A stretch of DNA of 64,000 nucleotides, taken from sequence record PV469800.1; one strand, 5' to 3'. The position numbers and the translations under genes are program-made. Below the pieces are notes generated by a model. The model was not told the origin of the DNA. It did no database searches and saw only the letters and a program-made list of their open reading frames with translations. Origin of the DNA: Escherichia phage HMD-P10. Positions 13,604 through 17,192 of this stretch are shown in pieces (within the stretch, counting starts at the first letter, position 1; every line of letters starts with the position of its first letter).

Positions 13604-14779
13604 ATGGCAGTAGGTGAAATTCAAATTAGTGCCTTGCCACAAGCGGCCTTACCAATTGATTTGAGTGATATCTTCCATCTTAAGCAAGGTGTTGAAGATA
13701 AAAGATGTACGCTTGAACAGTTGTTAGCACCTCACACATCTTTGAGGAATAACCCTCATGGTGTAACTAAATCACAAGTTGGTCTTGATAATGTTATTAA
13801 CTCACTCCAATTGGTCGCAGCTAATAACTTGTCAGACATTGTAGATGTTGCTGAGGCAAGAGCAAATCTACAGATTATGTCGTCAGATGAAGTGAACAGT
13901 TTAATTCAGAGACATATCGACGACAAAAGTAACCCACACAATACAACGAAAGCACAGGTCGGTTTAAGTAATGTTCAGAACTGGACAACATCCAACCTGT
14001 ACAATGAAGATGCTGATAAATATGCTACCGCGAGAGCAGTGAATAATCTATACAAAGCTATCCAAGCATCATATCCAGTGGGGACTATTCATCTGTCTGT
14101 TAACTCTGCTAACCCATCCACTTACTTGCTTTGTGGAGGTACTTGGGAGTTGGTTTCTAAAGGTAGGGCGCTTGTTGGTTATGATACAGAAGCTAGACCT
14201 GTTGGTTCAACGTTCGGTTCTCAGACTGTAGCATTAACAAATAATAATTTACCAGCACACACCCACTCTATCTATTTAACAGGTGGTGGTCACACACACT
14301 CTGCAAGCGTATCTATCTCTAGTTTTGATTATGGTTCAAAAAGTACATCAACTTTTGATTACGGTACAAAAACGACTAATAGTGCTGGTGCTCACACTCA
14401 CACGTTTAGCGGCACGACAAGTAATGATGGTAACCATAACCATAGAGTACCACTGAGAGGTAATGATAGAAGTGGGGGGGATGCTATTACTGCATCTGCT
14501 TATGCTGGGGTTAATAATAATACGTATACTGATTTAGCAGGTGCTCACACCCATAGCTTCTCAGGCACAACTGCATCATCTGGTGCTCATAACCATACTG
14601 TTGCAATTGGTGCTCATAGCCACACTGTTAATATTGGTTCACACAGTCATACGGGTACTGTTACTGTCTCTAGCTCTGAACATACACACTCAGGAACATC
14701 TGGTTCTGTTGGTGGTGGTCAAGCTTTCAGTGTTGAGCAGCCATCTTTTGTCGTATATGTATGGCAGAGAACAGCTTAA
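13604..14779 (+). CDS. tail fibre protein with His-x-His repeat tip
   Basis: 391 aa; NPH..TKAQVGL.NV repeats typical of phage fibres; C-terminal domain with ~10 HxH motifs (AHTHS, GHTHS, AHNHT, GAHSHT, SHSHT, EHTHS); G7 tract inside. Confidence 0.65.
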   Translation: MAVGEIQISALPQAALPIDLSDIFHLKQGVEDKRCTLEQLLAPHTSLRNNPHGVTKSQVGLDNVINSLQLVAANNLSDIVDVAEARANLQIMSSDEVNSLIQRHIDDKSNPHNTTKAQVGLSNVQNWTTSNLYNEDADKYATARAVNNLYKAIQASYPVGTIHLSVNSANPSTYLLCGGTWELVSKGRALVGYDTEARPVGSTFGSQTVALTNNNLPAHTHSIYLTGGGHTHSASVSISSFDYGSKSTSTFDYGTKTTNSAGAHTHTFSGTTSNDGNHNHRVPLRGNDRSGGDAITASAYAGVNNNTYTDLAGAHTHSFSGTTASSGAHNHTVAIGAHSHTVNIGSHSHTGTVTVSSSEHTHSGTSGSVGGGQAFSVEQPSFVVYVWQRTA

Positions 14780-14787
14780 TTTCTTTA

Positions 14788-14811
14788 CAGGGGCTATAAA
14801 GCCCCTTTTAA
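14788..14811 (+). terminator. rho-independent terminator
   Basis: GGGGCT-ATAA-AGCCCC followed by TTTTAA. Confidence 0.55.
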
Positions 14812-14825
14812 GAGGAAAATTCATA

Positions 14826-17192
14826 ATGGCAGATTACAAATTGAGTCAGTTAAACTCAATCGACACAATTCGTTCAGAAGACCTATTGCATATCAGAGTT
14901 AAGAAAAGACCTGAAATGTTGGGTGACGAAGACCGTAGAATGACCTATCAAGACTTCTTAGCTTCCTTCAAACTAGAAAGGTTTGTTCAGATTGCTGGGA
15001 GTAATATGACTGGGGATTTAGGTATTGTCAAGCTACTTTACGGTGGAAAGATTGTATTTGACCCTACAGGCTCTTCTGAGATTACTATTGGGGATGTTTT
15101 AAAGACTTTTAAACTTAATGCAAGTGGCCTTAAACTCACTATTGCAGACTCTTCAAGGTCAGCAACTGTTTATCACACTCTGAATAAGCCAAGCCCTAAT
15201 GAGCTTGGTATGAGAACTAATGAAGAGAATGATGCAAGATATGCAAGGCTTGCTGCAAATAACATCTTTACATCCCAACAAACTATCCAAGCAAATGGTG
15301 AAGGTATTAGGTTAAAAAACTCTTCTGAGAACTCACCGTTGTATATCAGAGGTCAGGATAGTGCTGGTGAGAATAGATGGTATATCGGTAATGGTTCAGG
15401 GGGTGATAATGTTACTATCCGCAACCACAAGACAGACTGTGAAGTTATTCTATCTAGTGTCGTGGCTATCAATAAAACATTAAGCATCACTGGTCAAGTC
15501 AAACCTTCAGATTTCTCTAACTTAGATGCTAGATACTTCACTCAGACAGTTGCTAATCAGAGATTTGCACAGTTAGCTGGTAATAACACTTTTACAGGTG
15601 CTAATACATTTAGGACTATGAGTATTATCTCAAATGCTGCTGCTATCACACTACAATGTGCATCAGCAAATGAATCCCTGTATCTACTTGCAAAAGATTA
15701 TCAAGGTGGTAACTTATGGTATGTTGGTAAAGGTAGCTCAGGTGATGGTGTAACTATCTACAACTATACCACTAACACCTCTTTGGTCTTAGATGCTGCT
15801 GGAGTATCAGCAAATAAAAATGTCAGAATCACTGGTCAAGTTCAACCTTCAGATTGGGCTAATATTGACTCTAGATACATTCCAGCAGGGACTTTGAGTA
15901 ACCTTGCTAAACTGAGTGATGTGAATACTTTTAGGTCTGCGCAAGTTATTAAACAGAATGGTCCAGTGTTGCAGCTAAGGAATACTATTCAGGACAGGGA
16001 GCTATATATCTCTGCTCATAATGCTGATGATGTTAGAAAGTGGTACATCGGTAACGGGGATGCTAACCCAGCAAGGCTTATTATCCACAACGACAGAACT
16101 GCAACTACGATTTATATGCAAGACGATTTCTTGCTGAATAAAACAGTTAGAATCACTGGTCAAGTTCAACCTTCAGATTTCTCTAACTTAGATGCTAGAT
16201 ATTATACGCAATCTGTAGCAAACTCTAGGTACATGCTTGCTGTCTCTACTGGTTCTGGTACAGAGGCTGGTGATGGTGATGGTATTGCTTGGAATGCTAG
16301 GACTGGTCTGTATAATGTTACAGGGAAATCTGGTGGTTCAACACAGCTAGTTTATCAAATGTTTATCGGTGGTGGCTCAACACCAACTGCACAGTTGAAG
16401 TTTAGCTACAGGAATGGTGGTGTCTGGTATAGGACAGCAAGAGATGGCTATGGATTTGAGAATAGCTGGGCTAAAATCTATACAGACCAAGATAAGCCAA
16501 CCCCTTCAGATATCGGTGCATACACTAAAGCTGAAACTGACCAGAAGATTGCAGAAGCAATTAGTGACTCTACAGACCTGAATAAAATCTATCCAGTAGG
16601 TATTGTAACGTGGTTTAACAGTAATGTTAACCCTAATACAGCACTTCCTGGTCTAACTTGGACGTACCTGAATAATGGTGTTGGCAGAACTATTAGGATT
16701 GCAGCAGCAAATGGTTCAGATGTTGCTACAACTGGTGGTTCAGACTCTGTAACGTTATCTGTTGGTAACTTACCTTCACACACACATAGTTTCTCTGCTA
16801 CCACTTCATCATTTGATTATGGTACTAAGACTTCTAGCACAACTGGTAACCATAACCACAACAGAGGTAACATGGAAATTTCTGGTGTGGTTGGTTGGTT
16901 CAGAAGTGATAACAGTGCATTCTACACTGCGAGCGGTGCGTTTCAGATGGGTAGTTCTCAGGCTTCACATGGCTTCACAGGCTCTAACTTCACTTACGGT
17001 GCTGCTGCTGATTTCCACGCGTCAAGAACTTGGACAGGTGCAACCAACACAACAGGTAACCATAGCCATACTGTAGGTATTGGTGCTCACAGCCACACAG
17101 TTAGTGGTAACACAGGTGGTACTGGTTCTGGTTCAGCATTTAGTGTTACTAACCAGTTCTACAAGTTAATGGCTTGGGTAAGAACTGCTTAA
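14826..17192 (+). CDS. long tail fibre protein with internal repeats and His-x-His repeat tip
   Basis: 788 aa from ATG at 14826 (RBS AGAGGAAAA); three ~85 aa internal repeats (ITGQVxPSDxxNxDxRY); C-terminal tip paralogous to 13604..14779 with HxH motifs. Confidence 0.65.
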   Translation: MADYKLSQLNSIDTIRSEDLLHIRVKKRPEMLGDEDRRMTYQDFLASFKLERFVQIAGSNMTGDLGIVKLLYGGKIVFDPTGSSEITIGDVLKTFKLNASGLKLTIADSSRSATVYHTLNKPSPNELGMRTNEENDARYARLAANNIFTSQQTIQANGEGIRLKNSSENSPLYIRGQDSAGENRWYIGNGSGGDNVTIRNHKTDCEVILSSVVAINKTLSITGQVKPSDFSNLDARYFTQTVANQRFAQLAGNNTFTGANTFRTMSIISNAAAITLQCASANESLYLLAKDYQGGNLWYVGKGSSGDGVTIYNYTTNTSLVLDAAGVSANKNVRITGQVQPSDWANIDSRYIPAGTLSNLAKLSDVNTFRSAQVIKQNGPVLQLRNTIQDRELYISAHNADDVRKWYIGNGDANPARLIIHNDRTATTIYMQDDFLLNKTVRITGQVQPSDFSNLDARYYTQSVANSRYMLAVSTGSGTEAGDGDGIAWNARTGLYNVTGKSGGSTQLVYQMFIGGGSTPTAQLKFSYRNGGVWYRTARDGYGFENSWAKIYTDQDKPTPSDIGAYTKAETDQKIAEAISDSTDLNKIYPVGIVTWFNSNVNPNTALPGLTWTYLNNGVGRTIRIAAANGSDVATTGGSDSVTLSVGNLPSHTHSFSATTSSFDYGTKTSSTTGNHNHNRGNMEISGVVGWFRSDNSAFYTASGAFQMGSSQASHGFTGSNFTYGAAADFHASRTWTGATNTTGNHSHTVGIGAHSHTVSGNTGGTGSGSAFSVTNQFYKLMAWVRTA

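Follow-up and report, generated by a model that had tools for sequence, protein, structure and literature searches.

Two adjacent tail fibres of Escherichia phage HMD-P10 with T4 gp37-like tips: a putative metal-riveted needle and a candidate exchangeable head in each

Introduction

Whether a phage equipped with two tail fibres recognizes its host with both of them, and whether the part that makes contact can be exchanged, are questions raised by a locus of Escherichia phage HMD-P10 (sequence record PV469800.1), of which a stretch of 64,000 nucleotides (nt), hereafter the window, was analyzed. Two adjacent genes of this window encode a short tail fibre (fibre 1) and a long tail fibre (fibre 2), both ending in tips packed with His-x-His (HxH) motifs. 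A sequence-only reading had likened these tips to that of the T4 long fibre, in which such histidine pairs coordinate metal ions, and had suggested either dual receptor specificity or a swap-able host-range determinant. Our comparisons with T4, with the Felix O1-like relatives and with published structures make it highly probable that each fibre ends in a needle riveted by metal ions and carrying a variable, receptor-specific head, and that heads are exchanged via the motifs flanking them.

Homology of the fibre tips to T4 gp37

In a search of all PDB sequences, residues 146-362 of fibre 1 matched the T4 gp37 tip (PDB 2xgf) with an E-value of 3.1e-27, including a 103-residue ungapped stretch that begins at FDYGTK, spans the head and reaches the last His boxes, and fibre 2 matched the same entry with an E-value of 4.8e-8 (the fibre 2 query in the Pfam and PDB searches began at position 14796, so that residue numbers in those searches are offset by +10 amino acids (aa)). 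The gp37 sequence was taken from the T4 genome and its residues 785-1026 were aligned to both tips; the T4 facts used here are drawn from PMC12609058, PMC3004832 and the 2xgf sequence alignment. Each T4 HxH motif holds one iron ion in crystal structure 2xgf (PMC12609058). All seven of these motifs (residues 883, 915, 929, 966, 980, 989 and 998) align with fibre 1 motifs (residues 219, 264, 278, 315, 329, 338 and 347, respectively), and fibre 2 keeps four of the seven positions, the equivalents of 883, 915, 980 and 989. Judged from these alignments, both tips are true homologues of the T4 gp37 receptor-binding tip and do not merely resemble it.

The two additional motifs of fibre 1, at residues 230 and 360, each fall within an insertion 11-13 residues long, one after the first descending and one after the last ascending motif; such paired insertions would be expected of a needle that is longer by one rung per strand beside the collar. 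The FDYGTK repeats, the GxHxH boxes and the R-x-A C-terminal end of the T4 gp37 tip are also present in these fibres. The overall design differs, since T4 gp37 is a 1026-aa distal half-fibre joined via gp36, gp35 and gp34, whereas each fibre here is a single baseplate-attached protein. In the tips themselves, fibre 1 has two more HxH rungs than T4, while fibre 2 has four rungs and a head that is larger and different. The Phage_tail_collar family (PF07484) had no match at E <= 0.01 in either fibre; it is present in some more distant homologues, such as the side tail fibres of E. coli prophages.

Enrichment of HxH motifs and relationship between the tips

Fibre 1 contains nine HxH motifs (residues 219, 230, 264, 278, 315, 329, 338, 347 and 360) and fibre 2 contains four (residues 652, 676, 746 and 755). 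When each protein was shuffled 20,000 times, fibre 1 yielded 1.4 motifs on average and fibre 2 yielded 0.27, and the fraction of shuffles attaining the observed count was 0 and 0.0001, respectively. The concentration is also evident across the window, where the two fibre genes account for 13 of the 26 HxH motifs present in all 69 open reading frames (ORFs) of at least 100 aa. Every motif quoted in the sequence-only reading was found in the translations; its list for fibre 1 named five, all of them real, out of an actual total of nine, and the start coordinate that it gave, 14200, has to be corrected, as it falls within the fibre 1 gene (13604-14779).

The two tips are also related to each other, as had been claimed, with 32% identity over 221 aa (BLASTP, E 7e-17). 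Their final segments, AFSVEQPSFVVYVWQRTA in fibre 1 (residues 374-391) and AFSVTNQFYKLMAWVRTA in fibre 2 (residues 771-788), are those quoted earlier, and both follow the pattern ...AFSV...W-x-RTA. The tips are old paralogues and not the outcome of a recent duplication, since the match of fibre 1 to T4 gp37 has a better score than its match to fibre 2. At the other end, a faint N-terminal motif is common to both fibres (GVEDKRCTLEQLL in fibre 1, 13604-13760; GDEDRRMTYQDFL in fibre 2, 14826-14980), and it matches the Cys or Met site discussed in the Sf14 paper for baseplate attachment (PMC11821841). The fibres may be paralogous at both ends, with the shaft of the long fibre as an insertion.

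Conservation and selection in needle and head

Conservation was assessed over 68 homologues of the fibre 1 tip and 117 homologues of the fibre 2 tip. In the case of fibre 1, the motif histidines are 0.84-1.0 identical, except for H264 and H266 (0.62 and 0.78), which gives a range of 0.62-0.99 for the descending and 0.84-1.0 for the ascending strand, and the mean for non-histidine positions is 0.56; in the case of fibre 2, six of the eight motif histidines (H652, H654 and the 746/755 pairs) are invariant, with a non-histidine mean of 0.40. The lowest column identity of each tip falls in the head, between the descending and the ascending motifs, and the fibre 2 head combines low occupancy with low identity among homologues.

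Substitution rates were compared with the related phages wV8 and EC6. For fibre 1, the ratio of nonsynonymous (dN) to synonymous (dS) substitution rates against both phages is 0.03 in the needle strands, where dN is about 0.01 and dS 0.2-0.4, and 0.34-0.63 in the head. For fibre 2 against wV8, the collar and needle have a dN of 0, compared with 0.28 for the head. The low dN/dS of the needle and the higher values of the head therefore indicate strong purifying selection on the needle, with amino-acid change concentrated in the head.

Head cassettes and mosaicism

The closest structurally described relative, phage Bas63 (Escherichia phage JohannRWettstein), shows where the two fibres diverge. 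In both fibres, identity to Bas63 is 80-100% at the N-terminus, in the collar and over the C-terminal segment, but only 23-53% in the head cores, which comprise aa 241-320 of fibre 1 and aa 681-760 of fibre 2; the narrower head regions give 23% in fibre 1 (aa 281-314) and 25-45% in fibre 2. The FDYGTK repeat and the GxHxH boxes mark the boundaries of divergence. In the 19 Ounavirinae loci compared, fibre 1 carries nine HxH motifs (seven in Bas63), and fibre 2 carries four, six or seven.

A head of T4 type is found in the relative vB_EcoM-VpaE1, whose long-fibre tip contains a 287-nt block (NC_027337.1, about 53240-53525; locus excerpt 9501-9788) with 93% identity to nt 2692-2978 of T4 gene 37. 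At the protein level, 99 aa of this block align to gp37 residues 896-994 with 90% identity; its ends are FDYGTK and GIGAHSHTV, and its flanks are of the Felixounavirus type. Read from the sequence, the block, which is the clearest sign of swapping, points to a fairly recent head-cassette exchange between T-even and Felix O1-like phages. The VpaE1 paper gave no more than 54% identity, over a longer span (PMC4690856). E. coli B-type lipopolysaccharide (LPS) is used by T4 and VpaE1 alike.

His-box DNA is repeated within the locus as well: a 27-nt tandem His-box repeat lies in the fibre 1 gene (14570-14638), and a 69-nt His-box block recurs in both fibre genes at 74% identity. The earlier suggestion of a swap-able determinant gains support from the comparison, through the conserved flanks and divergent head cores relative to Bas63 and through the T4 cassette of VpaE1, and gains further support from the difference in dN/dS between the head and the needle of fibre 1.

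In T-even phages, the His boxes are reportedly recombination points for adhesin swapping, as Tetart, Desplats and Krisch are said to have described in J Mol Biol in 1998. The present locus resembles that model in that conserved GxHxH boxes flank variable specificity segments and in that the divergence boundaries among relatives match the motifs. It differs in the genes concerned, which are those of gp37 and gp38 in the T-even case and two paralogous fibres here, in the subfamily, and in the exchange between subfamilies.

The fibre 2 head DNA allele of the window occurs in only 11 phage records by megablast, mostly from E. coli O157 hosts, and the fibre 1 core in 31 records, counts that suggested independent assortment of the head alleles. 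This idea was dropped, as direct alignment showed that EC6 has the fibre 1 allele (88-90%) and that wV8 has a diverged four-HxH fibre 2 tip; the apparent assortment arose because of a megablast word-size artefact. In the EC6 record (NC_027369.1, locus excerpt 1640-4010), the long-fibre gene is annotated as two overlapping coding sequences of 541 and 259 aa, a split that looks like a frameshift or a sequencing error.

Proposed architecture of the tips

In the T4 tip, the chain leaves the collar, runs out as a beta strand to the distal head, turns and returns, and the trimer forms a six-stranded needle in which HxH motifs from three chains provide six histidines to each axial metal ion; the metal is iron, and seven Fe are present. 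The chain reversal at the head has been shown for the Bas63 orthologues by cryo-electron microscopy (cryo-EM; PMC12609058). By analogy, each HMD-P10 fibre trimer would end in a needle of six strands, riveted by metal ions along its axis, six histidines to each, with the ...AFSV...W-x-RTA segment running back to the collar. A fibre 1 trimer could hold up to nine ions if all motifs were filled, that is, the seven T4 positions and one further rung per strand beside the collar, and a fibre 2 trimer up to four, its needle being short and its head larger. For such octahedral sites on the three-fold axis, indirect support comes solely from the near-invariance of the motif histidines. The metal stack would act as a structural rivet; specificity would reside in the variable head and possibly in the adjoining needle surface; and the FDYGTK and GxHxH segments flanking the heads, common across genes and phage groups, would serve as recombination sites by which heads are exchanged as cassettes. 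The present comparisons show the homology, the motif register, the conservation pattern, the mosaicism and the synteny, and work on relatives has shown that both fibres are part of the virion and have this tip architecture; which metal HMD-P10 binds, how fully its motifs are occupied and which receptor each head recognizes are inferred.

Several observations weigh against this mechanism. The AlphaFold2 (AF2) models are mediocre, with a mean predicted local distance difference test score (pLDDT) of 72 for the fibre 1 tip and 64.5 for the fibre 2 tip and values below 50 in both heads; they are monomers, in which long strands flank a low-confidence middle and a short C-terminal strand follows, and the intertwined trimer and its metal geometry lie beyond a monomer model. 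Foldseek searches of these models against the PDB find the T4 gp10 C-terminal collar only, not 2xgf. The Bas63 fibre density is too weak for side-chain modelling (PMC12609058). T4 gp37 requires the chaperones gp38 and gp57A. Fibre 2 retains no more than the four T4 positions listed above, and its H676 and H678 align poorly among the homologues (0.11 and 0.25 identity); these two residues may form no metal site. The Foldseek searches also returned matches to the beta-hairpins of pore-forming toxins, which were set aside as spurious.

Alternative explanations

A baseplate protein of the T4 gp10 type, and not a receptor-binding fibre, is what fibre 1 might seem to be from its annotation: Gp10_C is its sole Pfam family above cut-off, its PDB matches include T4 gp10, its best confident Foldseek matches are gp10 C-terminal domains, and many of its homologues are named "phage baseplate protein". 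However, the gp10 similarity spans only about 90 collar residues, and the rest of each protein matches fibre families; the match to 2xgf is stronger (E 3e-27) and covers 217 residues that include the entire needle and head; and no gp10 N-terminal domain is present in fibre 1. The cryo-EM maps of Bas63 and Sf14, in which the orthologue is a 430-Angstrom fibre (PMC12609058, PMC11821841), refute this identity in practice. It was rejected, the full gp10 architecture being absent, and we find it scarcely credible. A second possibility concerns the motifs, whose abundance could be a by-product of tandem duplications of DNA encoding Gly, Ser, Thr and His, kept as recombination sequence and without a role in metal binding. 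The 27-nt tandem repeat and the His-box blocks common to both genes fit such an origin, as does the coincidence of cassette boundaries with HxH motifs; yet protein-level identity of the histidines is 0.84-1.0 whereas the residues and codons around them vary, the needle has a dN of about 0.01 against a dS of 0.2-0.4, so that selection acts on the protein, and the homologous T4 motifs each hold iron in 2xgf (PMC12609058). We judge a purely duplicative origin to be very improbable.

The remaining questions concern receptors. Dual receptor specificity of the two fibres, as envisaged in the sequence-only reading, is plausible by analogy, because both fibres are present in the virions of relatives. 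It could instead be that the HxH metal braces the needle and that one fibre alone sets the host range, the other being a generic second-step or sheath-docking fibre. In Bas63, both fibres are folded against the sheath, with the short-fibre head between sheath domains (PMC12609058); a receptor has been proposed for just one Sf14 fibre (PMC11821841); VpaE1 adsorption relies on a single receptor class, truncated LPS core (PMC4690856); and dN/dS is below 1 in both heads. Set against this, each head is the most variable part of its protein across relatives, and the tip modules have changed far more in amino-acid sequence at the head than at the needle or collar (wV8 and EC6 being the references for fibre 1, and wV8 for fibre 2), which is the pattern expected if both heads contact variable host surfaces. 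A single host-range fibre, although the main rival reading, seems doubtful to us. A bolder proposal is that the four-HxH long-fibre tip, with its head of about 65 residues, represents a fold not yet seen structurally and binds a receptor unlike that of the six-HxH tips, that the short fibre, with its T4-length head, binds a second receptor, and that the clade operates a two-receptor system in which the count of metal rungs sets a needle length matched to how deep the receptor lies in the cell envelope; this proposal is speculative, and we consider it unlikely. The metal-riveted needle with a receptor-specific, exchangeable head is the mechanism that we retain.

Domain organization of the two fibres

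The features of the locus are collected in Table 1. In fibre 1, the collar aligns with the collars of T4 gp37 and gp10, and Foldseek pairs it with the T4 gp10 C-terminal domain (2fkk, 2fl8; probability 0.98). The Trp and Arg of its W-x-R-T-A ending are invariant in the alignment of homologues (alignment A1), and the C-terminal segment has a dN of 0 against wV8 and EC6.

In fibre 2, the three shaft repeats (15471-15556, 15813-15898 and 16137-16222) have a mutual identity of 64-84%, and the family PF20744 (gp37_trimer) matches the shaft in three stretches (8.9e-65). Compared with wV8, EC6 and Bas63, the shaft is a mosaic in which blocks of about 90% and about 50% identity alternate, and the wV8 long fibre is longer by 60 aa. 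The collar of fibre 2 is 90-97% identical to that of Bas63, and the last 28 aa are 100% identical. Between shaft and collar, the region of about aa 475-583 matches a domain of the phage Mu tail fibre S (S/S', PDB 8ju3). This domain lies near the receptor-binding end in Mu, where a separate chaperone is needed; in HMD-P10 it is followed by an added tip of the gp37 type.

Table 1. Features of the tail fibre locus in the window (positions in nt; residues refer to the protein named)
Feature	Position	Strand	Evidence and remarks
Bas63 gp25 orthologue, long-fibre platform (T4 gp9-like)	13299..13601	+	Position and length as bas63_0025; phrog_4141 at 7.8e-61
Fibre 1, short tail fibre, 391 aa	13604..14779	+	Orthologue of Bas63 gp26, Sf14 gp52, VpaE1 gp74
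Fibre 1 collar, about aa 141-218	14024..14257	+	PF21939 Gp10_C 1.2e-18, 68.8 bits (cut-off 27)
Fibre 1 descending needle strand, aa 219-280	14258..14443	+	HxH 219, 230, 264, 278; two FDYGxK repeats
Fibre 1 head, aa 281-314	14444..14545	+	Presumed receptor-contact end; ungapped alignment to T4 gp37 head
Fibre 1 ascending needle strand, aa 315-365	14546..14698	+	HxH 315, 329, 338, 347, 360
Fibre 1 C-terminal segment, ...GGGQAFSVEQPSFVVYVWQRTA and stop codon	14699..14779	+	Aligns with T4 gp37 C-terminus NIAFNYIVRLA
Hairpin AGGGGCT-ATAA-AGCCCCT, then TTTT	14789..14809	+	Between the two fibre genes
Fibre 2, long tail fibre, 788 aa	14826..17192	+	Orthologue of Bas63 gp27, Sf14 gp53, VpaE1 gp75
Fibre 2 shaft, three 86-nt direct repeats about 330 nt apart	15471..16222	+	Correspond to Pfam gp37_trimer repeats
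Fibre 2 Mu S-like domain, about aa 475-583	16248..16574	+	PDB 8ju3 E 1.1e-22; PF12604 gp37_C 1.8e-22
Fibre 2 collar, about aa 586-651	16581..16778	+	PF21939 22.3 bits, under cut-off 27; homologues carry PF21939
Fibre 2 descending needle strand, aa 652-680	16779..16865	+	HxH 652, 676; one FDYGTK; aligns with T4 883, 915
Fibre 2 head, aa 681-745	16866..17060	+	Insert larger than T4 head, allele-specific
Fibre 2 ascending strand and C-terminal segment, aa 746-788	17061..17192	+	HxH 746, 755; ...AFSVTNQFYKLMAWVRTA and stop codon; aligns with T4 980, 989
Two small overlapping ORFs directly after the long-fibre gene	17272-17469 (65 aa), 17466-17837 (123 aa)		PHROG matches of unknown function only

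Gene layout and genomic context

The two genes encode both baseplate-attached fibres of a Felixounavirus (Ounavirinae) myophage. The N-terminal, baseplate-binding regions of both fibres are 88-97% identical to Bas63, and the genes are adjacent and lie downstream of the wedge and platform genes, the role of Bas63 gp25 as long-fibre platform having been described in PMC12609058. Fibre 1 matches phrog_2097 (tail fiber, 9.5e-138) and aligns with Bas63 gp26 in a conserved gene order; fibre 2 matches phrog_4277 over its entire length (E = 0) and aligns with Bas63 gp27. Gene order in the window equals that of Bas63 gp24-gp29, and beyond these genes the opposite strand encodes thymidylate synthase and dihydrofolate reductase. 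The 3.6-kb fibre region has 96.6% DNA identity to Felixounavirus vB_EcoM_Shy and matches 234 phage records, nearly all of them Felixounavirus. The start of fibre 2 given by the mechanical ORF call, 14541, overlaps fibre 1; the true start is the ATG at 14826, which is preceded by the ribosome-binding site AAGAGGA.

The hairpin between the two fibre genes has a folding energy of -16.1 kcal/mol (z -2.4), and its stem is invariant among six Ounavirinae, including a Moogle-like phage, whereas the 4-nt loop varies; the hairpin is conserved in Bas63 as well. The wV8 record annotates it as a Rho-independent terminator, but its T run was too short for a call by a consensus terminator scan. The hairpin could reduce expression of the long fibre relative to the short fibre. 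In Bas63 virions, long-fibre occupancy is partial (PMC12609058).

Of the two small ORFs that follow the long-fibre gene, the 65-aa and the 123-aa product both begin with a hydrophobic N-terminus, beyond which the 123-aa product weakly matches coiled-coil families; neither ORF matched a chaperone family, their PHROG families being of unknown function alone. They could encode lysis or fibre-assembly proteins, and gp55 is listed as "holin or lysozyme" in the Sf14 paper (PMC11821841). A strong terminator (17843-17866) follows them at the strand switch, and the GC skew places two switches of the coding strand, one near 17.9 kb and the other near 28 kb. ARAGORN found no tRNA genes across the whole 64-kb window. 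Upstream of the fibre genes, the central spike protein (9931-10554), which has an N-terminal domain of the PF18352 type, also carries an HxH motif at its C-terminal end; the same motif has been described as a tail-needle iron site in the Bas63 and Sf14 papers (PMC12609058, PMC11821841).

Relation to published fibres and significance

The iron-binding role of HxH motifs in other fibres is widely discussed (e.g. PMC11705849), and the fibres of close relatives have been described in detail. Simoliunas et al. (2015; PMC4690856) reported that VpaE1 gp74 (aa 146-362) and gp75 (aa 584-780) are homologous to the T4 gp37 adhesin, listed both among the virion proteins on the basis of mass spectrometry and identified truncated LPS core as the receptor. 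The VpaE1 long-fibre head, a near-T4 cassette (90% aa, 93% nt identity) in a tip with six HxH motifs, differs from that of the window, which is of the four-HxH type, as in wV8. In the case of Sf14, Subramanian et al. (2025; PMC11821841) found gp52 (391 aa) and gp53 (792 aa) in mass spectrometry data as well as in the cryo-EM map and described a T4 gp37-like distal tip; Mu-type chaperone genes were not found there. The 2025 cryo-EM study of Bas63 (PMC12609058) showed a short fibre, gp26, and a long fibre, gp27, each ending in a gp37-like collar, an HxH needle and a head, counted seven motifs in the short and six in the long fibre, and found both tips to be highly variable across the genus. HMD-P10 shares with Bas63 the genus, the two-fibre design and the tip architecture, with C-terminal segments that are 81-100% identical. 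It differs in having nine HxH motifs in its short fibre and four in its long fibre, in a distal half of fibre 1 that is of T4 length, unlike that of Bas63, and in its head cassettes.

The paired gp37-like tips are thus real and their reading is sound, yet they are already published for close relatives, as homology in 2015 and by cryo-EM in 2025, and what sets this phage apart (a short fibre with nine rungs; a long fibre with four rungs and a large head) amounts to allelic variants of a known design. The tips are likely host-range determinants of the Felix O1-like phages, which are used for typing, biocontrol and therapy of Salmonella and E. coli O157. A head cassette bounded by FDYGTK and GxHxH, of the kind that appears to have moved between T-even and Felix O1-like phages, would offer a practical design rule for retargeting them.

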